Shown piece by piece: positions 32,723-50,581 of a stretch of 64,000 nt of DNA; within the stretch, counting starts at the first letter, position 1, and every line of letters starts with the position of its first letter. The notes beneath the pieces are model-generated. The model saw nothing but the letters and a program-made list of their open reading frames with translations, searched no databases and was not told the origin of the DNA. Source of the DNA: a virus; IMG/VR virus record IMGVR_UViG_3300024255_001088, one strand, 5' to 3'. The position numbers and the translations under genes are program-made.

Positions 32723-32930
32723 GATAGTACATAAAGTGGAAGGATTTTCAGACCTAATTAGGGATGAATCCTCTCATGCCATTATCAATACTAACGAAGA
32801 ACAGTATAGGTTGACAATGAAAAGAAGAGATTTTTTAAAAACTCAAAAGAATGAAATAAATACTCTTAAGAAAGAGGTAACAGAAATTAAAGACTTATTA
32901 AAAGATATAGTAGAGAAATTACATGGCTAA
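32709..32930 (+). CDS. Small coiled-coil hypothetical protein
   Basis: KVEG...LIRDESSHAIIN...EINTLKKEVTEIKDLL; follows the VrlC-like gene; start uncertain. Confidence 0.7.
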   Translation: MLLRKIVHKVEGFSDLIRDESSHAIINTNEEQYRLTMKRRDFLKTQKNEINTLKKEVTEIKDLLKDIVEKLHG

Positions 32931-35301
32931 AACAGTAGACAACTTCGCAACAATTGAAGACTTTAGAACTACCTATAACGAACTCGCATATGATGTGGGT
33001 GAAGTTTCTGGTCTAAGGGAAGGATTAAAATCTGGAAACAACGGAACACTAGTTGATGCTGTCAATGTTTTAGAAGACAAACAGTTTTTCTTCCAAGAGT
33101 TCATATTCGTTGCATCAACAAACCAAACACTATTTACAGGTAACGATGAGTTTGTAAATAACTTAATTTTTGTAAAAGATAAGATTCAAGTATTTAAAAA
33201 CGAAAGACATTTGATAGAAGATGTAGATTTCATTATTTCTAATCCTACTGGTACAGGTTCGCATGAGGGTATCACACTAACAGGTACTTATGCATCTGGT
33301 CAAGCAAATGCAATGTCTACTAACGATAGACTTCATGTATACTCATACACTGGTGCATTTGTAGGAACAAATATTGCAAACTCAGTTGCATCATTCTTCC
33401 AGAAAACAGTTGAGAACACAATCTATAACACCAATGCAAACGGTGTTATTATAAATGGAGATAGTTCATCACCAACAACTCTACTAGAATCTGGATATAC
33501 AATACAACTTGCAGGCAAGACATTTGCAGAAGATGATATCTTACTCACAACAGGCAAGACACTAACTGCACCTACTATCACTGATTCTACAATGAGTATC
33601 AACAGTGGTTCTATAACAGGCGCAGTCAACGGAACATTCTCAGGATTCTTAGATATCGAAGGTAACATCGATGTAAATGGTACATCTAATTTAGATGTTG
33701 TAGACATTGATGGTACAGTAAATATGGCATCAACACTAACAGTTGATGGCAATACAGACTTAAATGCAAACCTTACAGTAGACGGAAACACAACATTAGG
33801 TAACGCCGCTTCTGATACAATCACATTTACAGGTTATGCAAACTCTCATTTAAGACCAGAAACAACTAATACATATTCATTGGGTTTAACATCAAAGAGA
33901 TGGTCAAATGTATATTCAAACTTATCAAATGTATCAGGAACTGCAACAGTAGGAACTCTAACAGATGGTACATTGAGTATCACTGGTGGCGACATTACAA
34001 GTGTCGATGATATAACAGGTGACACAAACTCAGTATTCAAATCAGGTAGTTCTGTAGTTAATAACATTAAAAACTTTGCTGGTACTCACACAATACTAGA
34101 TACAACATCTGACCACGACAGTAATGCAAACGCAGGTTCTTTGACTGGTACAGTTTCAAGTATTGCAAACCACACAACACAAAACTTAACAGAACATAGT
34201 TCTAATCTATATTATACAGATGCAAGAGCAGACGCTAGAATCGCATTAAAGAATATAGATTATCTTGCAAATGTAACCAATTCAGCGCTTGCAAATGATG
34301 ATGTTTTATTGTATAATGGTAGTGCATGGGTGAATACGCCAATGCAAGAGAGAGTTGAAGATATCGCTGGTGCAATGTTCGCTGGTAATACTGAAACAGG
34401 TCTATCAGTCACATACAACGATACTACAGGCAAAACAAATCTAGTAGTAGACAATTCAACTTTCACATTAACAGGTGGAGTCACAGGTACTGCTACTCAG
34501 ACTGCAAAGGGTAATTTGACAATTGCAACTACTCTTAGAGATTTGACAAAAGGAGATATTACTGATACTCAACTTGCTCTAAATGATTTATACGATGTTT
34601 CAGATGGAAACAATACTGATGACCAAATCTTAGTACAAGACACTAATGGTACATGGTCGAATGTCACACTCACCGAGAAAGTACAAGACATTTCTGGTGG
34701 AATGTTCACAGGCAATACTGAAACAGGTATTACTGCAACATATCAAGATTCAGATGGAACTGTTGACCTTGTAGTAGACAATTCAATTTTCACATTAACA
34801 GGCAAAGTCACTGGTACCCAGACTCAGACTGCAAAGGGTAATGTATCTATTTCCACCTCAGTCAATCTCGCATTATCAGACTTACCATCAATCGACTTAG
34901 AAGATTTAGCAAATGTCAATAGTGGTGCAAATACTGGTCAAGTATTAGTTTGGAGTGGTAGTGCTTGGAACCCTGCTGACCAAGCTGGTAGTACTAGTAA
35001 TTTAACTGAAGACGCTTCTGCTGTATTCTTTACAGACAACAGAGTTGCAGATGTCTTTAAGGTGAGTGATAATGTTGAACTAAATAAAGGTATAAAAATC
35101 ACCTACAATGATAATCCAGAAGGTGGTACTAATACAACTACAGATGGTGAGATAACATTCGAAGCTTCAGTTAGTAATGGTATCGCTCTAGATGGTAACG
35201 ACATAGAGTTAGATTATAGTGTGATAACAGACTCAGATTTATCTAGTGGTCTTCCGAGTGGTAGTGGAAAAGAGATTGGTCATCTTTTCTTTTTAATATA
35301 G
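32923..35301 (+). CDS. Tail-fibre-like structural protein (fibre of cassette 1)
   Basis: T/G/S/D-rich beta repeats; duplicated VxDIxGxMFxGNTETG module; NLYYTDARAD; ends PSGSGKEIGHLFFLI. Confidence 0.75.
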   Translation: MAKTVDNFATIEDFRTTYNELAYDVGEVSGLREGLKSGNNGTLVDAVNVLEDKQFFFQEFIFVASTNQTLFTGNDEFVNNLIFVKDKIQVFKNERHLIEDVDFIISNPTGTGSHEGITLTGTYASGQANAMSTNDRLHVYSYTGAFVGTNIANSVASFFQKTVENTIYNTNANGVIINGDSSSPTTLLESGYTIQLAGKTFAEDDILLTTGKTLTAPTITDSTMSINSGSITGAVNGTFSGFLDIEGNIDVNGTSNLDVVDIDGTVNMASTLTVDGNTDLNANLTVDGNTTLGNAASDTITFTGYANSHLRPETTNTYSLGLTSKRWSNVYSNLSNVSGTATVGTLTDGTLSITGGDITSVDDITGDTNSVFKSGSSVVNNIKNFAGTHTILDTTSDHDSNANAGSLTGTVSSIANHTTQNLTEHSSNLYYTDARADARIALKNIDYLANVTNSALANDDVLLYNGSAWVNTPMQERVEDIAGAMFAGNTETGLSVTYNDTTGKTNLVVDNSTFTLTGGVTGTATQTAKGNLTIATTLRDLTKGDITDTQLALNDLYDVSDGNNTDDQILVQDTNGTWSNVTLTEKVQDISGGMFTGNTETGITATYQDSDGTVDLVVDNSIFTLTGKVTGTQTQTAKGNVSISTSVNLALSDLPSIDLEDLANVNSGANTGQVLVWSGSAWNPADQAGSTSNLTEDASAVFFTDNRVADVFKVSDNVELNKGIKITYNDNPEGGTNTTTDGEITFEASVSNGIALDGNDIELDYSVITDSDLSSGLPSGSGKEIGHLFFLI

Positions 35302-35311
35302 TGAACAAAAT

Positions 35312-36901
35312 ATGTCAGACGATATTTTTATAAAACATGATAAGAATGGTGGAACTTTTCAGCAACCCTTTTTAGCCAGAGTACCTGCAACCGGTCAACA
35401 ACCGAATATCGCACAAAGAATTTATCAGGTTACTACTCAAGGAACACAACCATTTACATATCAAAGTAGAACACCTACAAATGTTCAGACGCCTAGTAAT
35501 GCACAAAATCCAATAATTGCTCAAGGTATCGCACAAACAACTTATCAACATAGGTCGCCTGCTATATACACAAGTAGGGCGCCTTCAATATACAATATTC
35601 AAACACCTTCTACATATCAACATAGAAGTCCTTTGATATATCAACATAGGTCACCGTTTACTTATCAGTTAAATTATCAACATAGAGAACCTTCTACATA
35701 TCAACATAGAAGTCCTTTGATATATCGTACACCGACTCAGACTAGAACGCCTAGCATCTATACAAATAGACAACCTTTAACATATGAACATAGAAGTCCT
35801 TTTACATATGACCACAGAAGTCCTTTAACATATGACCACAGAAGTCCTTCTCGAACACCTTCTACATATCAAAATAGACAACCTTTAATATATGACCATA
35901 GGTCGCCTTATCAAAGTCCGTTTACTTATCAACATAGAAGTCCGTTGATATATGACCATAGGTCGCCTTCTACATACGATAATAGAGAACCTAGTATCTA
36001 TCAACATAGAAGTCCAGACACTTATCAGCATCAATCGCCGAGTACTTATCAGCATAGGTCACCGTCTCAGAGTCCGTTTACATACGACCATAGGTCACCA
36101 TTTACATATGACCATAGGTCACCGTCTCAGAGTCCGTTTACATACGACCATAGGTCACCATTTACATATGACCATAGGTCGCCTTATCAAAGTCCGTTTA
36201 CATACGACCATAGGTCACCATTTACATATGACCATAGGTCACCATTTACAACTCCAGTAATTGTTAATACACAAAGCTCAAGAAATGCACGAACACCGTT
36301 TATCTTTAGTGAATTACAACAGCAAAACATTGGTACTACGACTGCTCCATATGCTGAAGTTCATTGTGAGATGTCACTTATAGATTCTAGCGGTCGAGAA
36401 CCTTGGATTGTATTATATTGTGTTGAATCAAGTAATGATGTTAATGTATATGTTTATGCTTCAGCTGATGCATTTGGACTTCCTGATGCATATCTGAAAG
36501 AAACAAATACCGGCGGTACTCAAAATGGTCAGGATCAAAACATTGAAGAAAATAGTGATGTTCTTCTATACAAAATAGACGATGCTGGAACTAATTATTC
36601 TGTTGCTAGAAGTACCTCTACTCATGGTACCTTCAATGAGGGTACTCTGAGCGGAAACATTTCTGGAGGCACTGCAATAACTAGCACTTCTTGGACTTAT
36701 GGTACAACTAATGGTACTTTTACCAAGTGGAAATGTGATAATGCTAACTCTGGAGATGTTAAGGAGTACGAGACAACTAATACATTTACATTTACAAGTC
36801 CAGATGCTAATATGGGAACTCATACAATAACGCTAAAAGTGAATCTGTATTACGAAAACGAACAACCAGAAGAAGATGAAGAAGAAAATGACCAGGAGTA
36901 A
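35312..36901 (+). CDS. Repeat filament protein A (PxTYxHRS array plus ~200-aa C-terminal domain)
   Basis: 310-aa proline-punctuated array (aa 19-328), then a non-repetitive domain with an acidic tail. Confidence 0.85.
   Translation: MSDDIFIKHDKNGGTFQQPFLARVPATGQQPNIAQRIYQVTTQGTQPFTYQSRTPTNVQTPSNAQNPIIAQGIAQTTYQHRSPAIYTSRAPSIYNIQTPSTYQHRSPLIYQHRSPFTYQLNYQHREPSTYQHRSPLIYRTPTQTRTPSIYTNRQPLTYEHRSPFTYDHRSPLTYDHRSPSRTPSTYQNRQPLIYDHRSPYQSPFTYQHRSPLIYDHRSPSTYDNREPSIYQHRSPDTYQHQSPSTYQHRSPSQSPFTYDHRSPFTYDHRSPSQSPFTYDHRSPFTYDHRSPYQSPFTYDHRSPFTYDHRSPFTTPVIVNTQSSRNARTPFIFSELQQQNIGTTTAPYAEVHCEMSLIDSSGREPWIVLYCVESSNDVNVYVYASADAFGLPDAYLKETNTGGTQNGQDQNIEENSDVLLYKIDDAGTNYSVARSTSTHGTFNEGTLSGNISGGTAITSTSWTYGTTNGTFTKWKCDNANSGDVKEYETTNTFTFTSPDANMGTHTITLKVNLYYENEQPEEDEEENDQE
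35366..36295 (+). repeat. Coding repeat array A
   Basis: Mostly 24-bp units such as ccatttacatatgaccataggtca; all Pro-to-Pro units are of even length. Confidence 0.9.
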
Positions 36902-36907
36902 TGTGAT

Positions 36908-38002
36908 ATGCCAGTAGGACAACAACCATCCATATACCAACATCCTATTGCTACACAGGCGCAACAACCAGCGCAACAACCTAATATTAGAAACAAACAA
37001 CACCCTGTTATTAGAAACAAACAGGAAAGTAATCAAGAACCTAATATTAGAAACAAACAACACCCTGTTATTAGAAACAAACAGGAAAGTAATCAAAATC
37101 CTGTTATTAGAAACAAACAAGAACCTAATATTAGAAGCAAACAGGAAAGTAATCAAAATCCTGTTATTAGAAACAAACAACATCCGTTTATTAGAGACAG
37201 ACAAAATCCGGTTGAAAGAGCTCATCAAACTCCTTATACTGCAAATAAACAAAATCCTGTTATTAGAGACCAACAGGTGCCTAGTATAAGAAACGCCCAA
37301 CAGAATGCTCAAGAACCTAATATTAGAAGCGCTCAAAGTCCTTACATCGCAGATGCACAAGCGAATACGCAGAATCCTTTTATTAGAAATCAACAAGAAC
37401 CTAATATTAGAAGCAAACAGGAATCTGTTATAAGAAACAAACAGTCTGCTTATCAAGCGAGTAAACAAACTCCTTCTATAACAAGAACACCAGCGAGTCA
37501 ACAAGAACCTAATATTAGAAGCGCACAAACACCTTCTATTAGACAAGCGCTTAAAAATAAACAACAACCTAATATTAGAAGTCAACAAGAACCTAATATT
37601 AGAAATAAGAGAACACCTTCAGCACATAACGCACAATATCTTAATACTCACAATAGACAAGACCCTGTTATTAGAAGACAACCATTTACATATCCTTTCT
37701 CATATAGAAGTCCTTCTACTTACAGACATCCTACTATTGGTCAACAACCATATATTGCACAAGGTCAGGCTTCTTATAGTTTTCAACAAAACAGACAACA
37801 ACCATATGGATTCAGGTCTCCGTTTATATTTCAAGCAACAGAGAACTCTAATCGACCAATAACGCCAGTTGCAAAAGTGAAAGGAGTCTTTATAAAAGAT
37901 AGTGATGGTGTTGTAAAAGCTTCAACTAAAGTCTTTGTTAAGAAAGATAGTTCAACAGTTGAGAAAATTCATCAGGTACCTGCTTTGCCGTTTGACGAAT
38001 AG
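36908..38002 (+). CDS. Repeat filament protein B (PNIRxxQE array), mirror partner of A
   Basis: 310-aa array (aa 7-316); C-terminal VKGVFIK...KVFVKK motif. Confidence 0.85.
   Translation: MPVGQQPSIYQHPIATQAQQPAQQPNIRNKQHPVIRNKQESNQEPNIRNKQHPVIRNKQESNQNPVIRNKQEPNIRSKQESNQNPVIRNKQHPFIRDRQNPVERAHQTPYTANKQNPVIRDQQVPSIRNAQQNAQEPNIRSAQSPYIADAQANTQNPFIRNQQEPNIRSKQESVIRNKQSAYQASKQTPSITRTPASQQEPNIRSAQTPSIRQALKNKQQPNIRSQQEPNIRNKRTPSAHNAQYLNTHNRQDPVIRRQPFTYPFSYRSPSTYRHPTIGQQPYIAQGQASYSFQQNRQQPYGFRSPFIFQATENSNRPITPVAKVKGVFIKDSDGVVKASTKVFVKKDSSTVEKIHQVPALPFDE
36926..37855 (+). repeat. Coding repeat array B
   Basis: cctaatattagaaacaaacaa-type units. Confidence 0.9.
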
Positions 38003-38019
38003 GATGACTAAATAGTAAT

Positions 38020-38352
38020 ATGGCTATAATCGCAAATTTATTTATCGACCAGGGAACAGACTTTACAGTTGCTGTAGATGTTTCCGATGCAACAGGAAGC
38101 GTTTTAAATCTCTCTGGTTATTCATCAGCAGGACAAATAAGAAAGACATACGGTTCTTCAACCATATCTGCCACATTTGCTACCAGTAATGAGAACGCTA
38201 CAGGTAAAGTGACATTATCTTTGACTGATACTCAAACATCAGCATTAGAACCTGGAAGATATGTGTATGATATGAACATAACAAGTGCTGGTGGTATAAC
38301 AACAAGAGTTGTAGAAGGTCAAGCAATAGTCACACCAGGAGTAACCAGATAA
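38020..38352 (+). CDS. Virion structural adaptor protein
   Basis: ANLFIDQGTDF...GRYVYD...RVVEG...VTPGVT; CTAAATA upstream. Confidence 0.75.
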   Translation: MAIIANLFIDQGTDFTVAVDVSDATGSVLNLSGYSSAGQIRKTYGSSTISATFATSNENATGKVTLSLTDTQTSALEPGRYVYDMNITSAGGITTRVVEGQAIVTPGVTR

Positions 38353-38591
38353 TGGCAATAAAAGGCGTAGTATCAAGAGTCGCTACTATAGGTGGCGTAT
38401 TATCCAACACAACAAATCTAAGAGCAAAACAAGTGACTGTTGGTTCTCAATCCGGTACTGATATCAGTGCAAAATCTATCAACGAACTTTCAGATGTAAA
38501 TGCATCGGAAACAGATGATGGTCTTCTCTCATATGACCAGTCAACTGATAAGTGGACAACCACCACTACGATAGACGGCGGAACATTCTAA
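38352..38591 (+). CDS. Small fibre-associated protein
   Basis: INELSDVN...LLSYDQSTDKW, ends IDGGTF. Confidence 0.7.
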   Translation: MAIKGVVSRVATIGGVLSNTTNLRAKQVTVGSQSGTDISAKSINELSDVNASETDDGLLSYDQSTDKWTTTTTIDGGTF

Positions 38592-38617
38592 AACACTAAA
38601 TAATAGTACAAATCAAG

Positions 38618-38698
38618 GTTGTCGACCAGTGAGACAACGACCCTCATTGTGAGAGGACAGTTTTATATTATGTATTCACGACTCAGGAGTGCTGAGTC
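38618..38698 (+). promoter_or_regulatory. Structured 5' leader (three hairpins) upstream of a fibre gene
   Basis: GTTGTC/GACAAC, CTCA/TGAG and GACTCAG/CTGAGTC stems, downstream of CTAAATA. Confidence 0.45.
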
Positions 38699-38733
38699 AC
38701 AACAATTAATTTAATTTTTATAGGAAAATAAAA

Positions 38734-40368
38734 ATGGCAACAGTAATTCAAATCAAAAGAAGTACAGGCGCATCTGCTCCGGCGATATCAGATTTATCGG
38801 AAGGTGAATTGGCGTATGTACAAGATAGAAGTAATTCTGGTGCATCTGCTAAACTATTCATCGAATCAGTAGATTCAGATAATTCTACAGCCCTAATCCA
38901 TGCGATTGGTGGTAAGTATTATACTGATATGCTTTCTGGTTCTTCAGCAACACCTGCTAACTTTAAAGTTGGTAATGGTTCTACTGCTGGTGCAACTTTA
39001 CAAATCATGGAAGATTCCGATAACGGAACAAACTTCGTTGGTCTTAAAGCTGCAGATACTCTTGGTTCTTCAGTAACCTTCACGCTGCCTACCGCAGACG
39101 GTTCTGCTAACCAAGTTATAGCAACAGATGGTTCAGGAAATCTTTCTTTCGCTTCAACAACTTCAACCCTTGCTGGTGGTAGTGATGTAAACATCACATC
39201 TGCTGCTGATGGTGCGATGTTATTATATGATACAGGAACATCAAAATGGATTGACAATGTAATGTCTGGTGACGCCACTATGGCCGACACAGGTGTTATG
39301 ACAATCGCAAACAACGCTATCAACGCTGCTAAATTAGCAGATGATGCAGTAGATACTGCAGCTATCTTAGATAGTAATGTGACATTAGATAAGATTAACT
39401 TCTTTGTAGACGAAGACAACATGGCTTCTAACTCAGCAGTTAAAGTTCCTTCTCAACAATCAGTAAAAGCATATGTAGACAGTAGTGTAACCGCTTCAGA
39501 CTTAGATATGGCTGGTGACAGTGGAACAGGTGCAGTAGACTTAGACTCTCAGTCACTAACAATCGCTGGTACAGCAAACGAGATTGAAACATCAATGTCA
39601 GGACAAACTTTAACAGTTGGTCTTCCAAACAATGTGACAGTCGCAAATAACTTAACAGTTTCAGGAAACTTAATATCAGACGATATTACAACTGCAACTT
39701 TAACAACATCTGGTAACTTAACAGTCACAGGAAACTTGGCAGTTAATGGTACTACAACAACAGTAAACTCAACAACAGTAAATATCGCTGACCCTGTATT
39801 CGAAATTGGTTCAGATAGTTCAGACGATAACCTAGACAGAGGTATTAAATTTAAGTACAACTCCGGTGGTGCTAAAATTGGTTTCTTTGGTATGGATGAT
39901 ACAGATGGTTCTTTTGTCGCTCTAACAAGTGCAACAGATAGTTCTTCAGTATTCTCTGGTACTGCAATGGCAGGTAAATTCGGTGACTTAACAGCTGCTG
40001 GTTTAGCAATGAGTGGAAGTATTTCTTCTTATGCAGGTTCAGCTCCTACAGATGGTCAAGTCTTAATTGGTGACACATCTTCAGGTTTAATGGACGCTGC
40101 TACTCTTACTGCTGGTGATGGTATTGATATCACTAATGGTGCAGGTGCAATTACGATTGCTGCTGAAGTATCAACTGCTTCTAACTTAGGTTCTGTAATT
40201 GTCGCTGCTGGCGAAGGTATGGATGTAGCGTACTCAGGTGGTACAGCAACCATTACTGGAGAAGATGCAACGACATCTAATAAAGGTATCGCTAGTTTTG
40301 CTAGTGCTAACTTTACAGTATCAAGTGGTGCAGTTACCATTACTGCTATTGACGGTGGAACATTTTAA
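38734..40368 (+). CDS. Tail fibre protein (Mtd_N-like N-terminus)
   Basis: MATVIQIKRS...GELA; FTLPTADG; QQSVKAYVD; ends IDGGTF. Confidence 0.75.
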   Translation: MATVIQIKRSTGASAPAISDLSEGELAYVQDRSNSGASAKLFIESVDSDNSTALIHAIGGKYYTDMLSGSSATPANFKVGNGSTAGATLQIMEDSDNGTNFVGLKAADTLGSSVTFTLPTADGSANQVIATDGSGNLSFASTTSTLAGGSDVNITSAADGAMLLYDTGTSKWIDNVMSGDATMADTGVMTIANNAINAAKLADDAVDTAAILDSNVTLDKINFFVDEDNMASNSAVKVPSQQSVKAYVDSSVTASDLDMAGDSGTGAVDLDSQSLTIAGTANEIETSMSGQTLTVGLPNNVTVANNLTVSGNLISDDITTATLTTSGNLTVTGNLAVNGTTTTVNSTTVNIADPVFEIGSDSSDDNLDRGIKFKYNSGGAKIGFFGMDDTDGSFVALTSATDSSSVFSGTAMAGKFGDLTAAGLAMSGSISSYAGSAPTDGQVLIGDTSSGLMDAATLTAGDGIDITNGAGAITIAAEVSTASNLGSVIVAAGEGMDVAYSGGTATITGEDATTSNKGIASFASANFTVSSGAVTITAIDGGTF

Positions 40369-40405
40369 TTAATATTCTTTAACACACTTTCAATAGGAGA
40401 TAGAA

Positions 40406-41230
40406 ATGGCAACAGTTATACAGTTTAAAAGAAGTTCGACTCAGAACGCAGTTCCTAGTACTGGTGATTTATCACTAGGGGAACTGGCTGTCAATACTTA
40501 TCACGGTAGATTTTATACCGAGAAAAATGATGGTTCCGCTGCTGTTGTAGAGATTGGGTCTAACCCAAAAACTCTACAAATTAATGACGCTATAACATTT
40601 CCAACCAGTGATGGTTCAAATGGACAAGTTCTTCAGACCAATGGTTCAGGAATAGTTTCATTTGCAACTTTAGGTGGTTCAGGTGTTTCAATTTACAAAT
40701 ACACCGTTTCGGGTAACCAAACTGTATTTACAGGTAATGATGATGACAGTAATGCATTGTCTTACACTGTAGGTTCAGAACAAGTATTCCTTAATGGTGT
40801 TAAGTTAGTTGATGCTGGTGCAGATTATACTGCAACCAACACCACGACAATCACACTGGAAGAAAATGCAATTGCAGGTGATACAGTAGAAGTAGTAGCA
40901 GTTACCGCTGCTAATTTAGTACAAGGATACTATACAAATAGTGTCTTTAGTGCAACTACTGCTAATCAAGTATTATCAAGCAATGCAGTATCTAATAAAG
41001 GTATTAAATATGTTATTACTGCCACTCATGCGAGTGCAGGAACACATTCAGCCGAAGTATTATTAATCAATGATGGATCCAATGCATATTTCGTTCAATA
41101 TGGCGATATATTCAGTACTGCTTCATTATTTTCGTTGACAGCTGATGTTAATTCAGGAAACATGAGACTCTTATGTACACCTGCTAACACCAACACAACG
41201 GTTAATACTTTCCAAATAAGACAATCATAG
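40406..41230 (+). CDS. Tail fibre-associated protein
   Basis: MATVIQFKRS...GELAVN; FPTSDG; VFLNGVKL; C-terminal domain shared with the next two genes. Confidence 0.75.
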   Translation: MATVIQFKRSSTQNAVPSTGDLSLGELAVNTYHGRFYTEKNDGSAAVVEIGSNPKTLQINDAITFPTSDGSNGQVLQTNGSGIVSFATLGGSGVSIYKYTVSGNQTVFTGNDDDSNALSYTVGSEQVFLNGVKLVDAGADYTATNTTTITLEENAIAGDTVEVVAVTAANLVQGYYTNSVFSATTANQVLSSNAVSNKGIKYVITATHASAGTHSAEVLLINDGSNAYFVQYGDIFSTASLFSLTADVNSGNMRLLCTPANTNTTVNTFQIRQS

Positions 41231-41241
41231 GGGGATAGAAA

Positions 41242-41652
41242 ATGGCTATAACAAGAAGTTTTAAACTCGCTGAATTCATCCGTCACATGTCTTATAACTC
41301 TAGTACAGATAGAATAGAAACAGGTAAAGAGATTCAAGACGAGAATACAACAACAGGTGGTATCACTAAAACTGCTACTACTGAATTCTCACTTGATACC
41401 TTTGCTCATGCTACCTATAGAGCTGCGAGATATATCGTGGCGATGTCAGAGGGAAGTAATTTCCACTCAACAGAGATAATGTTAGTACATGACGGTTCTA
41501 CCGTGACATTAACACAATACGGAACGCTTAAAGATACTAACTTAGCGACATTTGATGCAGACATTAATGGAGACAATGTTAGACTACTATGTACACCGGC
41601 GGGTACAAACTCAACGGTTATTAAGTTTAACAGAACTACAGTCGAAGCTTAA
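41242..41652 (+). CDS. Virion structural protein, paralogue of the 40406/41731 C-terminal domain
   Basis: YRAARY...STEIMLVHDG...TQYG...FDADIN...VRLLCTP. Confidence 0.75.
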   Translation: MAITRSFKLAEFIRHMSYNSSTDRIETGKEIQDENTTTGGITKTATTEFSLDTFAHATYRAARYIVAMSEGSNFHSTEIMLVHDGSTVTLTQYGTLKDTNLATFDADINGDNVRLLCTPAGTNSTVIKFNRTTVEA

Positions 41653-41670
41653 ATTCAGTAATATATTATG

Positions 41671-41701
41671 AAAAGGGGGACTTTAGAGTCCCCTTTTTTT
41701 T
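41671..41701 (+). terminator. Intrinsic terminator, possibly bidirectional
   Basis: AAAAGGGGGACT-TTAG-AGTCCCCTTTTTTTT. Confidence 0.85.
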
Positions 41702-41730
41702 GTCGGTAGATAAATTACATAAATAACACC

Positions 41731-42549
41731 ATGGCATCGAAAGTAAAATTTTTCGCAGATTTAGGTGTACAGTCAAAACTAAACACTCAAGTAGATGGCG
41801 ATTTAACAGTTGCAGGTGACTTAACGGTTACAGGGACAACTTTAACAGTCAATTCTACAACGACATCTGTTGGCGACTCAATGTTTGAGTTCGCAAATCA
41901 AAATACTAGTTCAGACCTAATCGATATTGGTTTCTACGGAAACTACAACGATGGTTTATCAGATGGTGGTGCATCTGAGTACACAGGTCTATTCAGAGAT
42001 GCATCGGATTCTACATGGACATTATTTGATGGTTTAGAGGTAGAACCAGGAACTACAGTTAATACTGGTGGTTCGGGTTACGCACTTGCTGATTTAAAAC
42101 TTGGAGATTTAACTTCTTCAACACTAACAGCAGGTGGATTATTATATCCAACTTCAGATGGTTCTAACAACCAAGTCTTAATGACTAATGGTTCTGGTAC
42201 TTTATCTTTCCAAGATGCTGGTTCAGGACTTACTTCTGGTACAGTGACTACAACATCGACTACTATCACAAATTTAGATACAATGGCGATTGCAAGTTAT
42301 AGAGGTGCAAAGTATACTATAACAGTCTCAGACGCTACTGGTGGTGATTATGAGATAACAGAGGTTCATGTAATACACGATGGTACTAACGCAAGTATAA
42401 CGCAGTTTGGTACAGTCCTACAAGGTACATCTAGTGAGTTAGGAAGTTTCTCAGTAGATATCAACTCAGGCAATCTCAGATTGAGAGTCACTTCTGCCAG
42501 TACAAACTCCACAGTTTATAATTTTAAGCGAATAGACCACGCTGTATAA
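41731..42549 (+). CDS. Tail fibre-associated protein
   Basis: GDLTVTGT repeats, YPTSDG, shared C-terminal domain (YRGAKY...HDG...TQFG). Confidence 0.75.
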   Translation: MASKVKFFADLGVQSKLNTQVDGDLTVAGDLTVTGTTLTVNSTTTSVGDSMFEFANQNTSSDLIDIGFYGNYNDGLSDGGASEYTGLFRDASDSTWTLFDGLEVEPGTTVNTGGSGYALADLKLGDLTSSTLTAGGLLYPTSDGSNNQVLMTNGSGTLSFQDAGSGLTSGTVTTTSTTITNLDTMAIASYRGAKYTITVSDATGGDYEITEVHVIHDGTNASITQFGTVLQGTSSELGSFSVDINSGNLRLRVTSASTNSTVYNFKRIDHAV

Positions 42550-42609
42550 AATAGTTATAACTAATTGAATTTTATTAGGGAAAATGAGGTCTTTAGAACG
42601 ACACCAATC

Positions 42610-42617
42610 TATAAATA
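42610..42617 (+). promoter_or_regulatory. T4-type late promoter
   Basis: TATAAATA. Confidence 0.75.
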
Positions 42618-42658
42618 ATAGTATTAATTACTAATACTTTTACAAAAGGACATAAGAA

Positions 42659-42877
42659 ATGGCAACAACACAAACATTTGTAATCGAGTATGGGTTATCA
42701 GTAGGGTCATCTGAAGTCATAAATTCAAGTGGAAAAATCGTACCAGGTGCGTTATCCAATGTGGATTCAGACGACATAACAGAAGGCTCAACTAATCTGT
42801 ATATGACTACTTCAAGATTCAACTCTGCATTTGATACGAGACTATCTAACGCCACTATTGATGGAGGCACTATCTAA
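42659..42877 (+). CDS. Small fibre-associated protein
   Basis: FVIEYGLSVG, DDITEGSTNLY, ends IDGGTI. Confidence 0.7.
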   Translation: MATTQTFVIEYGLSVGSSEVINSSGKIVPGALSNVDSDDITEGSTNLYMTTSRFNSAFDTRLSNATIDGGTI

Positions 42878-45354
42878 TGACAAGTAAAAATTTCATAATC
42901 AAAAATGGTCTAACAGTAGGAACTACTGAGGTCATAACATCTGCTGGTTTAATTACTGGCGCAGCTGTCAACGAGGCAGTTGACGATAGAGTTGATTCTC
43001 TATTAACTGCTGGAACAGGTATCTCATTAACATATGATGACACTGCTGGCACACTAACAATTAACGGACAACAAGGTGACATCACAGGTGTGAACGCTGG
43101 TGCTGGTTTAACTGGTACTGCAAGTTCAGGTGATGCAACACTAAACATTGGTGCTGGTACAGGTATTACTGTAAATGCAGACGATATTGCAGTCAACTTC
43201 AAAGATGAAGATGACATGTCTTCAAACTCAGCAACTCATGCCGCTACTCAACAATCAATTAAAGCATATGTTGACGCTCAAGTTGCAACAGTTCCGACTG
43301 GAGACATAACAAGTGTAGTCTCAGGAACTGGTCTAACAGGTGGCGGAACAAGTGGCGATGTCACTGTAAATGTTGTTGCAGGTAATGGTCTTATCGCAAA
43401 CGCAGACGATGTGACAATCGATACTTCGATAACAGCAGATTTAACTACTGCACAAACTTTAACTAACAAAACATTAACGACTCCAATTCTAAATGGAACA
43501 ATTTCGGGTACTGCTGTCTTAGACCAAGACAACATGTCTTCTAATAGTAATACTCATCTTGCAACACAACAATCAATCAAGGCATATGTAGACTCTTCAG
43601 TTGCAGGTAAAGATAATACAGACGAGATTACAGAAGGTTCAAGTAACCTATACTTCACAAATGAAAGAGTAGACGATAGAGTAGATGCTCTACTAACTTC
43701 TGGTGTCAATGTCGCTATGACATATGACGATGCAAATGGAAGTTTAGAGATTAGAGTACCTTATGAGAATATACAAGATACAGTTGGCGCTCAGATTGCA
43801 ACCAATGGTTCACATACAGGTCTTACTGCAACATATGATGATGCAGGTGACGGCGCTGTAGACCTTGCAGTATCAACATCACATGTTAGGGGTTTAATAT
43901 CTGCTGGTGGTGACTTATCATACAACAGTTCAACAGGTGTAATTAGTTTCACAAACGATGCTGGTGATATCTCTTCAGTAGTTGCTGGAACTGGTATGAC
44001 TGGTGGGGGAACTTCTGGTGATGTGACAGTCAATGTTATTGGGGGAGACGGTATTACTGCAAACGCAAATGATATCGCATTGTCTTCTTCAGTCGCTGGT
44101 GATGGTCTTTCATTCTCAAGTGGTGTTCTTGCAGTAGGGGTTGACGATAGTTCTATAGAAACAAGTTCAGATACATTACAAGTGAAAGCACTTGGTGTCA
44201 CAAATGCCATGTTGGCAGGTTCAATTGCTGAAGGCAAACTTGCAGGTGGTATTTCAAACGCAAAACTTGCTAACTCATCCATAACAATAGACGGAAGTGC
44301 TGTTTCATTGGGTGGTTCAATAACTACTACAAATACACAACTTACACAAGAACAAGTCGAAGACTTTGTTGGTGGTATGTTAGATGGTACCGAAACAGGT
44401 ATCTCTGTATCATACGATGATACAAATGGTAATCTTGACTTTGTTATTGGCGCTGACGACATTACTAACGATATGTTGGCAGGGTCAATTAATCAATCCA
44501 AACTTGCAGGTTCAATTGCAAACGCAAAACTTGCTAATAGTACGATAACAATTGATGGACAATCAGTTGCATTGGGTGGTTCAGTCACAACAACTAACAC
44601 TCAATTATCAACAGAGAATGTACAAGATATCGCTGGGGCGATGTTCTCAAGTAATACTGAAAGTGGTATTACTGCAACATATCAAGATGCAGATGGTACA
44701 ATCGATTTGAATGTTAATGACCCAACAATATCCTTGACAGGCGATGTGACAGGTTCTGCTACAATGACCAATTTAGGTAATGTTAGTATCTCTACTACAG
44801 TCGCTGCTAACTCAGTCGCACTTGGAACAGATACAACAGGTAACTATGTCGCAGGTGTAAGTGCAGGAACTGGTGTCTCAGTAAGTGGTTCTGGAGAAGG
44901 TGCAACATCAACAGTATCTATTGGACAGGCAGTTGGAACATCAAGTAATGTTCAATTTGGAAACTTAGTTCTCACAGGCGACTTAACAGTTAATGGTTCA
45001 ACAGTAACCAACTCTTCAACAAATACAACTATCGAAGACCAACTTATAGAGTTAGGGACAGGTAATAGTGGTTCTGCTTCAGGCGATGCAGGTTTTGTTA
45101 TCGAAAGAGGAAGTGATGCCAATGTATTTATTGGTTGGGATGAAAGTGCTGATGCAGTCACATTCGGAACAGGAACATTTACAGGTGCATCAACAGGTGA
45201 TTTAACGATTACACCAAGTGCAGTAAACACTGGCGCATTGACAATTACAAATGCAACAAACAGTGGTGGCACAGCGAGAAACATACATCAGTCAACATCA
45301 GCTCCAGGCGGAAGTGATGGCGCAGTTGGCGATTTATGGGTTCTTTACTCTTAA
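42877..45354 (+). CDS. Long tail fibre protein (fibre of cassette 2)
   Basis: Repeated GDITSVxAGTGLTGGGTSGDVT, QQSIKAYVD and KLANS modules; ends STSAPGGSDGAVGDLWVLYS. Confidence 0.8.
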   Translation: MTSKNFIIKNGLTVGTTEVITSAGLITGAAVNEAVDDRVDSLLTAGTGISLTYDDTAGTLTINGQQGDITGVNAGAGLTGTASSGDATLNIGAGTGITVNADDIAVNFKDEDDMSSNSATHAATQQSIKAYVDAQVATVPTGDITSVVSGTGLTGGGTSGDVTVNVVAGNGLIANADDVTIDTSITADLTTAQTLTNKTLTTPILNGTISGTAVLDQDNMSSNSNTHLATQQSIKAYVDSSVAGKDNTDEITEGSSNLYFTNERVDDRVDALLTSGVNVAMTYDDANGSLEIRVPYENIQDTVGAQIATNGSHTGLTATYDDAGDGAVDLAVSTSHVRGLISAGGDLSYNSSTGVISFTNDAGDISSVVAGTGMTGGGTSGDVTVNVIGGDGITANANDIALSSSVAGDGLSFSSGVLAVGVDDSSIETSSDTLQVKALGVTNAMLAGSIAEGKLAGGISNAKLANSSITIDGSAVSLGGSITTTNTQLTQEQVEDFVGGMLDGTETGISVSYDDTNGNLDFVIGADDITNDMLAGSINQSKLAGSIANAKLANSTITIDGQSVALGGSVTTTNTQLSTENVQDIAGAMFSSNTESGITATYQDADGTIDLNVNDPTISLTGDVTGSATMTNLGNVSISTTVAANSVALGTDTTGNYVAGVSAGTGVSVSGSGEGATSTVSIGQAVGTSSNVQFGNLVLTGDLTVNGSTVTNSSTNTTIEDQLIELGTGNSGSASGDAGFVIERGSDANVFIGWDESADAVTFGTGTFTGASTGDLTITPSAVNTGALTITNATNSGGTARNIHQSTSAPGGSDGAVGDLWVLYS

Positions 45355-45386
45355 TAAATAGAATAGTATTTTAAGGACTATATAAT

Positions 45387-47489
45387 ATGGCGACAGGCTC
45401 ACAAAAGGTAAAAACACCAACAGGTTGGAATAGTACCCGAGGTGCATGGGTAAAAACAGACTCAGGCACATGGAAAGCTGCTGACCAGATTTATGTAAAA
45501 ACACCTACAGGTTGGAACAATGCTTCTGGACAACAGAGTGTTCAACAACCTTACCCTTATATCGCAAACGCACAAGAACCCAATATAAGAAACAAACAGA
45601 ATCCTTATCCTTATATTGCAAACGCACAAGAACCTAATATAAGAAACAAACAGAATCCTTATCCTTATATTGCTAATGCACAAGAACCTAATATTAGAGA
45701 TAGAAGACAACCTGCGATTTATCAAAATCCAGTAAATGCACAAGAACCTAATATTAGAAATCAACAAGAACCTAATATTAGGTCACAACAAGAACCTAAT
45801 ATTAGAGATGCTAGACAACCTGGTACATATCAACATAGGTCACCTAGTACATATAGAGACCCTCGTTCATATCAGAATCCTTCTACATATAATCATAGAA
45901 GTCCGTTGACATATCAACATAGAAGTCCGTTGACATATCAACATAGGTCACCATTTATATATCAACATAGGTCACCTTCTACATATAGTAATAGACAACC
46001 TAGTACATATCAACATAGGTCGCCTTATAGAAGTCCGTTTATCTATCAACATAGAAGTCCGTTGACATATGACCACAGGTCTCCTTTAATATATCGTAAT
46101 CCGTTTACTTATAATCACAGGTCTCCTTTAACATATGACCATAGGTCACCTTATCAAAGTCCATTTACTTACGACCATAGAAGTCCGTTGACATATCAAC
46201 ATAGGTCACCTTATAGAAGTCCGTTCACTTATCAACATAGAAGTCCGTTGACTTATCAACATCAGTCACCGAGTATTTACCAGAATCCAAGTACCTATCA
46301 GAACAGACAACCTAGTACTTATCAGCATCAGTCGCCAAGTATTTACCAGAATCCTAGTACTTACGACAATAGACAACCTAGTAGTTATCAGCATCAGTCG
46401 CCAAGTATTTACCAGAATCCGAGTACTTACAACAATAGACAACCTGGTACATATGACCATAGGTCACCTTATAGAAGTCCGTTCACTTATCAACATAGGT
46501 CACCATTTACATATGACCATAGGTCGCCGTTTACATATCGTAATCCGTTTACTTATAACCATAGGTCGCCTACTACATATAATCACAGGTCACCATATAC
46601 ATATGACCATAGGTCGCCTAGTACATACAATCACAGGTCACCTAGTACATATCAGGCAAGACAACCTAACGCTGCTAGAAACCCATTTAGTGCAAGACAA
46701 CCGTTCACTTATCAGGCAAGAGAACCTAATACATATAATCATAGGTCGCCTAGTACATACCAAGCAAGACAACCGAATAGTGCTAGACAACCATTTAGTG
46801 CGAGACAACCGTTCACTTATCAGGCAAGACAACCAAACTCTGCTAGAAACCCATTTAGTGGAAGAAATCCTTTCACTTATCAGGCAAGGTCGCCTTCGAT
46901 TGCAAACAATAGGTCTCCTGCAACTTATTCATTCAGAATGCCGTTTACCTTTGGTGGTGGAGGAGGAGGCGGAGGTTGCTTCGCTCCAGGTTCAATGATA
47001 TGGTTAGGCGATGGTTCACATGCACCTATCGAGTCATGTGTTGTTGGTCAATGGGTCATGTCTTGGAACGAAAGTACTAAATTACTTGAACCTAAGAGAA
47101 TACAACAAATTAATCCTCAGCCAATCAGTTCTATATGGGATATAACATTCTCAGATGGTAGAATTCTACAGATGACTGATACTCACCCATTGATGTTACC
47201 AAATGGTGAATGGGGTGCATTTGATATTGAGAAATCAGTAAAAGAACATTGGTGGATGGAAGATATAGAAACACATGAACTTAAAGTTGGAGATAGTATA
47301 TTCAGTATGTTAGATGGCATAATGTTTGATAGACAAGATGAAATGGGACTAGAGATAGTATCAATAGAAGAACACTCAGAAATGGAAGTTTATAACTTAA
47401 CTGGTATTGAAGATAACTCGAACTTCTTTGTTAATGGCATGTTAGCACATAACTTTAACAATCTACCTATTCCTGTAGGACAAAAATAA
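45387..47489 (+). CDS. Repeat filament protein C with C-terminal Hint domain
   Basis: N-terminal VKTPTGW repeats, 464-aa array (aa 55-518), Gly8 linker, Hint domain. Confidence 0.88.
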   Translation: MATGSQKVKTPTGWNSTRGAWVKTDSGTWKAADQIYVKTPTGWNNASGQQSVQQPYPYIANAQEPNIRNKQNPYPYIANAQEPNIRNKQNPYPYIANAQEPNIRDRRQPAIYQNPVNAQEPNIRNQQEPNIRSQQEPNIRDARQPGTYQHRSPSTYRDPRSYQNPSTYNHRSPLTYQHRSPLTYQHRSPFIYQHRSPSTYSNRQPSTYQHRSPYRSPFIYQHRSPLTYDHRSPLIYRNPFTYNHRSPLTYDHRSPYQSPFTYDHRSPLTYQHRSPYRSPFTYQHRSPLTYQHQSPSIYQNPSTYQNRQPSTYQHQSPSIYQNPSTYDNRQPSSYQHQSPSIYQNPSTYNNRQPGTYDHRSPYRSPFTYQHRSPFTYDHRSPFTYRNPFTYNHRSPTTYNHRSPYTYDHRSPSTYNHRSPSTYQARQPNAARNPFSARQPFTYQAREPNTYNHRSPSTYQARQPNSARQPFSARQPFTYQARQPNSARNPFSGRNPFTYQARSPSIANNRSPATYSFRMPFTFGGGGGGGGCFAPGSMIWLGDGSHAPIESCVVGQWVMSWNESTKLLEPKRIQQINPQPISSIWDITFSDGRILQMTDTHPLMLPNGEWGAFDIEKSVKEHWWMEDIETHELKVGDSIFSMLDGIMFDRQDEMGLEIVSIEEHSEMEVYNLTGIEDNSNFFVNGMLAHNFNNLPIPVGQK
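45549..46940 (+). repeat. Coding repeat array C
   Basis: 66 Pro-initiated units of 2, 4, 6 or 8 aa. Confidence 0.9.
46977..47453 (+). other. Hint (intein-like / BIL) auto-processing domain
   Basis: Block A CFAPGSMI, block B TDTHP, block F VYNL, block G FFVNGMLAHN; +1 residue is Phe. Confidence 0.9.
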
Positions 47490-47529
47490 TGAAGATGATA
47501 ATTAAATTAAGAGTAGGGAGTAAAATCTA

Positions 47530-48996
47530 ATGCCACAGCAACCTCTAATTGGACTTGCTCAATCGCCAAGTACTTCTAATGTGCAAACTCCGTATATTGC
47601 TAATGGCCAGCAACCTTATACTGGTCAACAACCATATACATATCAGTCGCCATATATTGCATCTGGTCAGACTCCTTATACTGGTCAGACTCCTTATACT
47701 TACCAGAGTCCTTATATTGCGAATAATCAACAACCCAATATTAGAAGTTATCAAAGTCCGTATATTGCGAATGGTCAGACTCCTTATACTGGTCAACAAC
47801 CTTATACTTTCCAGAGTCCATACATTGCGAATAATCAAGAACCTAATATAAGGAACAATCAGGAACCCAATATTAGAAGCATACAAGAACCTAATATTAG
47901 AAACCAACAAGAACCTAATATTAGAGATGCTCAGTCACCTAGTAATGCTCAGCAACCTACAATTAAGAACAAACAAGAACCTAATATTCGTTCAGCGCAA
48001 CAGTCAGCACAAGAACCAAATATCAGAAACTTTCAGACTCCTTACATTGCTAATGCACAAGGGGCTAGTGCAGCTCAAGAACCTAATATCAGAAATGCAC
48101 AAACACCTTATATTGCAAACAGACAAAACACTGCAAATGCACAAGAACCTAATATTAGAAACAGACAAACACCTTATATTGCAAACAGACAAACCACTTC
48201 AAATGCACAAGAACCAAACATAAGGTCACAACAAGAACCTAATATTCGTTCAGCGCAAGCGTCAGCACAAGAACCAAACATAAGGTCACAACAAGAACCT
48301 AATATTAGAAACAAACAGCAGAGTGCTCAACAACCTACTATTAAGAACCAACAGGAACCTAATATTAGAGATGCTCAGTCACCTAGTAATGCTCAGCAAC
48401 CTAATATTAGAAGTCAACAAGAACCTAATATTCGTTCAGGTCAAACGGTAACGCAAGAACCTAATATTAGAGACAGACAAACACCTTATATTGCTAATGC
48501 ACAAAATCCGTTTATTAGAAATGCTCAAGAACCAAACATAAGGTCACAACAAGAACCTAATATTAGAGCTCAACAAGAACCTAATATTAGAAACAGACAA
48601 ACAACAGCGAGCTATCAGAATCCTGTAAATGCTCAGAATCCGTTTATAAGAAATAATCAGACTCCATTTACATATGACCATAGAAGTCCGTTGACATATG
48701 ACCACAGGTCTCCTTTAACATATGACCATAGAAGTCCGTTTACTTACAGAAATCCTGCAAATAGTCAGACACCTCTTACATATCAACATCAGAGTCCTTC
48801 TACATATGCTAGACAAGGTCAAACACCAACGACTTATCAACATAGAAGTCCTTCTACATATGCTAGACAAGGTCAGACACCAACGACTTATCAACATAGG
48901 TCACCTAGTACATATGCTAGACAAGGTCAAACACCTGTTATCCGTTGGGATGGTTCATTGTCACAAACATGGCCAGGAACACCTGTTAATTCTTAA
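47530..48996 (+). CDS. Repeat filament protein D, mirror partner of C
   Basis: 464-aa array (aa 5-468), C-terminal RWDGSLSQTWP. Confidence 0.88.
   Translation: MPQQPLIGLAQSPSTSNVQTPYIANGQQPYTGQQPYTYQSPYIASGQTPYTGQTPYTYQSPYIANNQQPNIRSYQSPYIANGQTPYTGQQPYTFQSPYIANNQEPNIRNNQEPNIRSIQEPNIRNQQEPNIRDAQSPSNAQQPTIKNKQEPNIRSAQQSAQEPNIRNFQTPYIANAQGASAAQEPNIRNAQTPYIANRQNTANAQEPNIRNRQTPYIANRQTTSNAQEPNIRSQQEPNIRSAQASAQEPNIRSQQEPNIRNKQQSAQQPTIKNQQEPNIRDAQSPSNAQQPNIRSQQEPNIRSGQTVTQEPNIRDRQTPYIANAQNPFIRNAQEPNIRSQQEPNIRAQQEPNIRNRQTTASYQNPVNAQNPFIRNNQTPFTYDHRSPLTYDHRSPLTYDHRSPFTYRNPANSQTPLTYQHQSPSTYARQGQTPTTYQHRSPSTYARQGQTPTTYQHRSPSTYARQGQTPVIRWDGSLSQTWPGTPVNS
47542..48933 (+). repeat. Coding repeat array D
   Basis: 55 Pro-initiated units of 6-14 aa. 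Confidence 0.9.
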
Positions 48997-49033: not shown

Positions 49034-50581
49034 ATGAGCGTAAAATCAGACTCACTCGAGCACACAAAGGAACTTCTCAAAGATTGGGATCCAACAGATA
49101 AGAACACACATGTTCAGTTGGGTTCTTTTGATGTATCAAAAGATTATAAAGAAACAGAAGCATATAAATCTTTAAAATGGGTGACAGCGAACAAAACAGG
49201 AAAATTAAAACAGGTCAAATGGGGTGATATGACTAAGTTAATCAAGGAACAAAAGTTTCTTGGTTGGAACAAACTACAATCTCATTCATGGGCATATCAT
49301 TACTTTCTTTCTAAAGGATACACTGCACCACCCGAAAATCCAAAACCAGGAATTGCAGGTATGGATTTTAAAAATTCAAATGATGAATATCAAAAGATAG
49401 AAGAATTCACAGATACTAAGTTAAGCGAACAACAAGATTCTAGTCTTAATGCTGTATATTATCATGGTGCAAAGGCACATTGGTTAGTCGATAGTATCAG
49501 AAAAGAAGGTCTATGGAATGCAATTCAAGGCACTGTATCTACAGCAGGTATGAACTCCAGAGATGAACGAATGTATCAGTTATCTATACATCCAGGTTCT
49601 GTTCGTTCAGGTGTTTTCGAAACTATGAATGACCCAGACTTAGATTTATGGATATGGGATAACCACGATGCTATACCTCTTCCAGAAACACCTATAGATG
49701 AAATGATTGACGAAATGAAGTCGCAACTTGTAGAAAGAAATGCAGACCACTACTCAATGTCGTTTTCATTCACTCGTGGATATTTAGAAATACATAGTGA
49801 CTTATTGAAGATGAACTTCAGAGGAGATGTGACAGACTTCAATAAAAAAGTAAATAAACTTTCTGCTGGCAAACCCTTGACAATCTATGTCGGATATGAT
49901 AGTAGACACAAAGACATTGCAGAACTAAGTGCTAAATGTCTTAAGAGTAGTATATTATTTGGAGCAGGTCATGGTGATGTACATGATATATTAGGAGATT
50001 GGACTCCTGAGATAAAGTTTCTTGACATATCAAAGATTCCAGAGTATAATAGAGAGTATGCAGCTCAATCAACAGAGTTCACATATAGTAGATTCTTAAT
50101 TCCTTACTTAGAAAACTATGAAGGATTTAGTATTTTTATTGATGATGATATACTATTCAATGAAAGTATCTTACCAATGTTCTACTATTTAGATTTAGAT
50201 GATGCAGTTGCATGTGTTCAGTATGATTTTGATACTTATGCTGAAACAAAATTTAACGGTGAAAAGAATGTATCTTATCCTAAAAAACTTTGGTCATCAT
50301 TAATGATATTTAATAATGGTCACGAAGACTGTAAGAAACTTACGCCAGAAGTTATCAATACTGAAAGTGGTAAATATCTACATCAATTTGAATGGACAGA
50401 TAAGATATCAGAAATACCAGAATGGTATGTTATAACTGAGGGGCATGATACGCAAGAAGAAAAGTGGCGTGCTTGTGCTATACATTATACTAGAGGTGGT
50501 CCTTGGATTGAAGGCATGGATACTTCTGAAATAGAACACCTAAATATGTATGAAAGATTTAAAAATAAACATCAAAACTAG
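49034..50581 (+). CDS. Two-domain protein: ParB/Srx-like N-terminal domain plus GT-A glycosyltransferase
   Basis: IYVGYDSR, STEFTYSRFLIPYL, FIDDD (DxD), WSSLMIFN, LHQFEW, HYTRGGPW. Confidence 0.8.
   Translation: MSVKSDSLEHTKELLKDWDPTDKNTHVQLGSFDVSKDYKETEAYKSLKWVTANKTGKLKQVKWGDMTKLIKEQKFLGWNKLQSHSWAYHYFLSKGYTAPPENPKPGIAGMDFKNSNDEYQKIEEFTDTKLSEQQDSSLNAVYYHGAKAHWLVDSIRKEGLWNAIQGTVSTAGMNSRDERMYQLSIHPGSVRSGVFETMNDPDLDLWIWDNHDAIPLPETPIDEMIDEMKSQLVERNADHYSMSFSFTRGYLEIHSDLLKMNFRGDVTDFNKKVNKLSAGKPLTIYVGYDSRHKDIAELSAKCLKSSILFGAGHGDVHDILGDWTPEIKFLDISKIPEYNREYAAQSTEFTYSRFLIPYLENYEGFSIFIDDDILFNESILPMFYYLDLDDAVACVQYDFDTYAETKFNGEKNVSYPKKLWSSLMIFNNGHEDCKKLTPEVINTESGKYLHQFEWTDKISEIPEWYVITEGHDTQEEKWRACAIHYTRGGPWIEGMDTSEIEHLNMYERFKNKHQN

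Follow-up and report, generated by a model that had tools for sequence, protein, structure and literature searches.

In the 64,000-nt stretch of viral DNA analysed here (the window; IMG/VR virus record IMGVR_UViG_3300024255_001088), each of two long fibre genes has, downstream of it, two genes for repeat proteins whose repeats mirror one another, and the locus raises the question of whether, and how, such a mirror pair belongs to the fibre encoded just upstream of it. An earlier sequence-only reading had described positions 32923-48996 as a repeated three-gene cassette, and had proposed that short beta motifs at the base of each pair complete a knob in trans on the fibre end and dock a thin filament there. 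The genome is that of an uncultured marine T4-like myophage, and the source record is a linear 140-kb IMG/VR virus with an estimated completeness of 77%. The new element reported here is the link of the mirror pair to the upstream fibre: the three genes form a conserved unit, present twice in the window, and we think it on balance probable that each cassette encodes one composite tail fibre of this myophage, with the filament standing on the fibre end.

Two cassettes of a fibre gene and a mirror pair

The six open reading frames (ORFs) of the two cassettes all lie on the + strand, separated by gaps of 6-40 nt inside each cassette. The first cassette consists of the fibre gene F1 (792 amino acids (aa), 32923-35301; an ORF matching the structural protein family phrog_697), protein A, which we call the outgoing strand (529 aa, 35312-36901), and protein B, the returning strand (364 aa, 36908-38002); the second consists of fibre F2 (825 aa, 42877-45354), outgoing strand C (700 aa, 45387-47489) and returning strand D (488 aa, 47530-48996). 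Both mirror pairs follow a long fibre gene, just as the sequence-only reading had said, and its claim that the two fibres share a V(E/Q)DI..MF..NTE-type module is borne out by a BLASTP match (E value 3e-26, 40% identity over 210 residues), the common module spanning VEDIAGAMF..NTETG..TYND in F1 and VQDISGGMF..NTETGITATYQD in F2.

The fibres end in PSGSGKEIGHLFFLI (F1) and PGGSDGAVGDLWVLYS (F2), and we propose as adaptors the last 15 residues of F1 (35254-35298) and the last ~30 residues of F2 (..ARNIHQSTSAPGGSDGAVGDLWVLYS, 45262-45351). The base of the first pair is formed by the N-terminal hairpin of A, MSDDIFIKH.. (aa 1-18, 35312-35365), and by the C-terminal base of B with its hairpin motifs VFIKDSDGVVK and VFVKKDSSTVEKIHQ (aa 317-364, 37856-37999); that of the second pair by the N-terminal domain of C, with three KVKTPTGW-type beta-hairpin motifs (aa 1-49, 45387-45533), and by the C-terminal tail of D, VIRWDGSLSQTWPGTPVNS (aa 470-488, 48937-48993). 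The motifs that had been quoted for these ends, IFIKH in A, VFIKD/VFVKK in B, VKTPTGW/WVKT/IYVKT in C and RWDG..W in D, are all present in the translations, as are those of the two fibre ends. The repeat arrays run through aa 19-328 of A (TYDHRSPF-type octads, 35366-36295), aa 7-316 of B (QEPNIRNK-type octads, 36926-37855), aa 50-522 of C (45534-46952; QEPNIR/PYIAN units first and TYQHRSP units after) and aa 1-469 of D (both array types, 47530-48936). The arrays of A-D match no Pfam or PHROG family, a PDB sequence search found nothing, and the literature searched gave no description of their repeat motifs.

The three genes stay together among relatives

We surveyed synteny, a check that the sequence-only reading had suggested, among the IMG/VR relatives, both from the side of the pair and from the side of the fibre. 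The family is a large one, with a C-type relative encoded in 297 IMG/VR stretches and a relative of the F2-type end in 202. Seen from the pair, an upstream gene is present for 52 distinct C-type genes, and in 52 of 52 cases it is a fibre gene ending in ..DGAVGD[LM]W[IV][LY]Y[SA]; the gene downstream of C, where it could be called, is of D type and ends in ..RWDG.....WP, a tail motif (RWDG..WP) that is kept in 45 pairs. Every A-type gene found follows a fibre ending in GH[LI][FYW]F[LV][IV], and the readable downstream gene is always of B type. Seen from the fibre, the pair comes next at 80/80 loci with an F2-type end, in the order C-D at 69 of them and D-C at 11 (L182, L184, L198, L200, L202-L204, L206, L210, L212 and L213), so that membership of the cassette is conserved and the order of its genes is not. 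All distinct F1-type ends found (17/17) have an A-type gene 1-16 nt downstream. The arrangement is far beyond chance and recurs in every related locus examined, and mirror pairs without an upstream fibre gene, which if common would speak against a link between the two, were not what the survey encountered in either family.

Conservation within the unit is uneven. Over 39 distinct triplets, identity is 28% in the fibre body, 83% in the last 30 aa of the fibre and 89% in its last 12 aa, 84% in the C N-terminal domain and 69% in the D tail; among 17 diverse relatives the C N-terminal domain has a mean column identity of 79%, and fibre length among relatives ranges from 462 to 1317 residues. These values support the base end of the pair, together with the last ~30 fibre residues, as the most conserved part of the cassette. 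In the A/B family, variants of the ends occur together: fibres ending in FFL/YFL are found with IFIK and VFVKKD, and fibres ending in WFV with IY(I/V)N or FVN and VHVND.

Within each pair the two chains match in antiparallel register

When adjacent units are summed, the list of proline-to-proline spacings in C is that of D in reverse, and the same holds for A and B. When 45 distinct IMG/VR C/D pairs were compared, nearly all prolines of D fell on prolines of C in one antiparallel register (56/57, 45/46, 41/41 and 42/42, for example; the 56/57 is that of a close relative, L009), compared to ~50% coinciding in the best parallel register and ~40% when the order of units was shuffled. In the A/B pair of the window, 30 of the 35 prolines in the B array meet prolines of A in a single antiparallel register; the figure is 21 when the chains are aligned in their best parallel register and does not exceed 17 with shuffled units. 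Parallel pairing was rejected on this ground, as the best such register leaves about half of the prolines unmatched. Array lengths co-vary between partners, ranging from 234 to 552 residues and always matched within a pair.

The spacing is also regular at a finer scale. Even spacings between prolines make up 99.2% of those in C and 98.6% of those in D, and in the C arrays proline occupies one parity 2234 times to 11 while F, Y and H occupy the opposite one 2765 times to 38, so that a two-residue periodicity runs over hundreds of residues, as it would in one uninterrupted beta-type strand. Residues that face each other in the antiparallel register follow a symmetric code in both types of pair (P·P, H·R, R·I, S·N, T·Q, F·Q/E and Y·A/G). 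An origin of the mirror at the DNA level, with D as an inverted copy of C, was considered and rejected: the antisense frames are full of stops, and blastn at word size 7 gave 0 minus-strand matches for C/D and for A/B, which indicates that the mirror is a property of the proteins. Taken as patterns in the translated genes, these results support A/B and C/D as true antiparallel partners. The same register brings the base motifs of A and B, and those of C and D, to one end of the pair: residues 1-49 of C lie there with residues 470-488 of D, and at the other end the junction between Gly8 and the Hint domain of C lies opposite residue 1 of D, which faces the start of the poly-Gly stretch.

Two minor features of the arrays and their genes may be mentioned here. 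Long antisense or alternative-frame ORFs lie within the arrays (36833-37588 on the - strand, 45462-45767 on the - strand and 46453-46998 on the + strand; one, of 251 aa, reads SNIRFLF..); they are by-products of the repeats, not genes (AATATT is its own reverse complement). In the window, the TAA stop of A is in frame with the start of B, at a distance of two codons (36899-36910), an arrangement shared by some relatives (L020, L052, L100 and L127) and not by others; as it is not general, it gives no sign of a conserved read-through.

The tip of the outgoing chain varies

Among relatives the outgoing chain ends in a Hint domain, a short aromatic-Gly cap or a globular domain. In the window, A carries a globular, hypervariable tip domain (aa 329-529, 36296-36898) that has a single homologous cluster, at 85% identity; family members P0052, P0062, P0069 and P0105 have unrelated tip domains, and a search of the ESM Atlas with the A tip returned only a sub-threshold Ig/PKD lead (score 0.76). 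A variable distal end on a constant proximal junction is the pattern expected of a host-facing fibre extension.

The tip end of C (46953-47489) consists of a Gly8 linker (aa 523-530), a Hint/intein-like domain running from Cys531 to His688-Asn689, and an 11-residue tail. The isolated domain scored 36.1 bits against PF14890 (cut-off 35.8) and the whole protein 31.1 bits, with PF01079 also matched. It has an N-terminal Cys nucleophile, a TxxH block (597-600) and a C-terminal His-Asn, and C531, T597, H600, H688 and N689 are invariant in seven aligned relatives. Like BIL and Hedgehog-type Hint domains, it places its Cys nucleophile behind a Gly, has a TxxH block and ends in His-Asn; unlike them, it is placed at the tip of a phage fibre strand, beside the N-terminus of the partner. 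Residue 690, where splicing would call for Cys, Ser or Thr as the +1 nucleophile, is Phe; splicing is thus not expected, and cleavage or acyl transfer would be expected instead. Many C relatives are without a Hint domain, and our literature search for Hint domains within tail fibres found nothing relevant. At three loci (L069:5651-9785, L081:10001-14075 and L070:10001-13610) a globular aromatic/Gly-rich tip replaces the Hint domain in the C-type protein, and one or two small ORFs (85-88 aa) separate C from D.

A model of a composite fibre

The cassette, the antiparallel register, the two-residue periodicity and the co-location of the base motifs are read directly from the genes, and the composite fibre that we propose is built around them as follows. 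The fibre, F1 or F2, probably a trimer, would be attached to the virion by its N-terminus and would carry at its other end a short and strongly conserved adaptor peptide (..G-D/H-L-W/F-x-L-x). From the two genes that follow would come a length-matched antiparallel pair. The outgoing chain (A or C) would begin with one to three beta-hairpin motifs and continue as an unbroken beta-type strand of proline-punctuated 8-residue units up to the tip, formed by the hypervariable globular domain in A and by the Gly8-Hint domain, putatively autoprocessing, in C. The returning chain (B or D) would begin beside this tip, run back unit for unit with complementary residues (H/R, R/I, S/N, T/Q, Y/A or G, P/P), and close in hairpin motifs adjoining the N-terminus of its partner. 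Finally, the base so formed, of the A/C N-terminus and the B/D C-terminus, would bind the adaptor of the fibre, so that the filament lengthens the fibre and shows its tip to the host. We infer this binding after the example of T4, T2 and lambda, in which products of downstream genes (gp37, gp38 and Tfa) attach to the end of a fibre. That the filament extends the reach of the phage for host capture, as the sequence-only reading had suggested, is speculation.

A more specific version is possible, if doubtful. Here an adaptor strand of the trimeric fibre would be completed in trans by hairpins of two other proteins, which would zip up antiparallel over 300-470 residues by a residue pairing rule, as a protein 'duplex' forming a filament of ~100-150 nm if fully extended; at the tip of C/D, the Gly thioester of the Hint domain would serve to release that domain or to join C to the facing N-terminus of D, the latter closing the hairpin covalently. 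This would be a new mode of fibre building.

If the composite fibre is real, abundant uncultured marine myophages bear a fibre extension built on an undescribed principle, namely a pair of unlike chains that a simple residue code keeps in exact register, with matched numbers of repeats setting the length of the filament and with a tip that can be swapped. Such a structure would bear on how phages find scarce hosts, would be relevant to protein design as a programmable antiparallel hetero-duplex, and would help to annotate the large 'hypothetical' share of host-recognition clusters in marine phages. The three-gene unit also names the partners for co-expression, namely the C-terminal part of the fibre and the two chains, outgoing and returning.

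Does the pair sit on the fibre?

Several results give a contact of the kind proposed no direct support, and we present them together. An in-frame read-through of A-TAA-B (896 aa), modelled with AlphaFold2, had a mean predicted local distance difference test score (pLDDT) of 32.5, and a chimera reading through from the fibre end into the C N-terminal domain (L020, 16 aligned sequences) had a mean of 44.8, both too low in confidence to be informative; the chimera model places strands at LWILYS and at the hairpins, without confidence. A profile of the C N-terminal domain (49 aa) run against 1.84 billion proteins gave 22 matches with E <1e-8 (20 of them <1e-10), all at or near the protein N-terminus, and among these 1.84 billion proteins none had the domain fused behind a fibre in cis. 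A split domain, shared between the fibre end and the C N-terminal domain, was also considered: hhalign against the cis N-terminal domain of neighbouring MATVIQ(I/F)KRS fibre proteins (MATVIQIKRS..APAISDLSEGELAY) matched 13-14 residues with a probability <4%, which is not significant. Relatives of A, C and the F2 end number 0 among 50,697 phage records (cultured phages), the database relatives of these proteins being all marine-metagenome proteins. A two-chain filament on a trimeric fibre poses a question of stoichiometry, and the co-occurring variants of the end motifs in the A/B family may reflect shared ancestry alone. Docking through a trans-completed knob is something that we infer from the genes.

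Some of these searches closed off other possibilities. A cis-fused ancestor was rejected, as the strong matches of the C N-terminal domain all sit at the protein's own N-terminus. Weaker matches were to translated CRISPR-like repeats or to unrelated proteins ending in three IYVKTxxGWKEA hairpins (P0153 and P0154), probably components of phage tails (for P0154, phrog_6977 is matched with E 0.003); these show that the hairpin motif does occur in cis, though not behind a GDLW fibre end. An Mtd_N or hyaluronidase-type fibre N-terminal domain split over the junction was not found, Mtd_N matching weakly in a neighbouring gene (E 0.034). For the statement in the sequence-only reading that many phage fibres have GDLW followed in cis by YVK..W strands, the resemblance in hhalign covered 13 residues and was not significant. 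What stands of its interpretation is a conserved and duplicated unit, antiparallel partners and base motifs at one end of each pair; the single knob completed in trans, and the filament on the fibre tip, stay proposals.

The structure predictions and the search for cis fusions, which give contact no support, would also suit pairs that are virion filaments attached elsewhere, such as at the baseplate, the neck whiskers or the capsid, with the neighbourhood reflecting a co-inherited and co-expressed host-recognition module and the fibre end serving its own trimerisation or folding. Moreover, the pair may follow the fibre in either gene order and small ORFs can part C from D, so that exact adjacency is not required. 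We nevertheless hold this to be unlikely, as the association is strict in both directions at every locus examined, each of the two paralogous cassettes keeps its own type of fibre end, and conservation peaks exactly at the three termini that the composite fibre would bring together.

Position downstream of a fibre gene is also typical of fibre chaperones and adhesins such as gp38 and gp57A (PMC6957217), and a fibre-assembly-like gene does follow B, both of which would suit pairs that serve the upstream fibre as assembly factors of the Tfa, gp38 or gp57A kind or as molecular rulers, binding its C-terminus during folding and not extending it distally. It is hard to square with a chaperone that the arrays run to 234-552 residues and keep a strict mirror code, and that the tips are hypervariable or of an autoprocessing type; nor does the length of the array follow that of the fibre (462-1317 aa). 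This explanation is in our view quite improbable. Finally, disordered, unpaired low-complexity arrays in a chance neighbourhood would agree with the AlphaFold2 models and with the missing Pfam and PHROG matches, but are very hard to credit: the mirror spacing is exact for dozens of pairs, partner lengths co-vary, 99% of the spacings are even, the residue code is symmetric and no cause was seen at the DNA level.

Relation to known fibres and stalks

The composite fibre, if correct, is closest in logic to fibres in which a downstream product sits on the C-terminus of an upstream one, here predicted from the genes alone. The segmented long tail fibre of T4 (gp34-35-36-37), the T2-type gp38 on the gp37 tip and the Stf-Tfa pairs of lambda and Mu are all products of consecutive late genes whose parts are joined end to end, and T4-type fibres share with the present ones the setting in a host-recognition module of a T4-like myophage (PMC6957217, PMC7029224). 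The distal part differs, consisting here of two different mirror-coded repeat proteins and not of a homotrimer or a small adhesin. Homology of F1, F2 or A-D to gp36, gp37 or gp38 was not detected by Pfam, PHROG or PDB searches, and none to Tfa was found either.

In the needle (D10-D11) of the receptor-binding tip of T4 gp37 the likeness lies in an out-and-back fibre, a long thin beta structure and regularly spaced histidines; the chain reaches the tip and comes back, domain D10 being built from residues 811-881 and 1010-1026 (PMC6957217). In gp37, however, a single polypeptide of the homotrimer supplies both strands and its histidines form iron-binding HxH pairs, whereas here the strands are separate gene products of 310-470 residues with one His per 8-residue unit. 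Length-matched outgoing and returning repeats with a functional domain at the tip are also generally known from the stalk of streptococcal antigen I/II (SpaP/SspB) and from the arms of SMC and Rad50. Those are single chains, made of an alpha-helix and a polyproline-II helix or of coiled coils, in contrast to the two chains, the beta-type two-residue periodicity and the residue-level pairing code seen here.

Genomic setting and neighbouring genes

Directly upstream of the F1 region lies the gene of a VrlC/DUF4815-type baseplate protein (2269 aa, 25913-32722, with a match to phrog_358), whose nearest cultured relatives are in Methylophilales phage Melnitz (35% identity) and in cyanomyophages. 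In pelagimyophages, a hypervariable 'host recognition cluster' lies between VrlC and gp14 (Zaragoza-Solas et al., PMC7029224), and the cassettes, coming after a VrlC-type gene, therefore fall in that region. With the VrlC-like baseplate gene on one side, the neck genes on the other and fibre-like structural genes around them, they lie where one would expect the tail-fibre/host-recognition module of a T4-like marine myophage; neighbouring genes match phrog_697, 17885, 18186 and 31660. In the VrlC-like protein itself a Pro-rich stretch (PPPPPPIVPPPPVPPTPPP followed by repeated PV dipeptides; window 30700-31000) forms a long linker between two conserved halves.

Each cassette has a neighbour that may be its accessory. 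Right after B lies a 110-aa gene (38020-38352, +) that matches phrog_3304, 'L-shaped tail fiber protein assembly', at E 2e-24 and weakly PF23926 LtfC (a beta-sandwich), and that is found in the same place after B in relatives; judging by these matches it may be an accessory of cassette 1 resembling a tail-fibre assembly protein. Right after D lies a gene for a 515-aa GT8-like glycosyltransferase (49034-50581, +; PF01501 at E 2.4e-5 and 24.5 bits, cut-off 24.3; phrog_28018 at E 8e-44), which lies 3' of the C/D pair in every relative whose gene list was inspected, including the loci with swapped D-C order. As an accessory of cassette 2 it may modify the filament or the host surface.

Three further proteins of the fibre module (38352-38591, 38734-40368 and 42659-42877) end in ..IDGGTF or ..IDGGTI, and the gene after each of them begins MATVIQ(I/F)KRS.. 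or MTSKNFIIKNGL.., so that these ends and starts may represent another set of adaptor motifs for end-to-end joining within the cluster.

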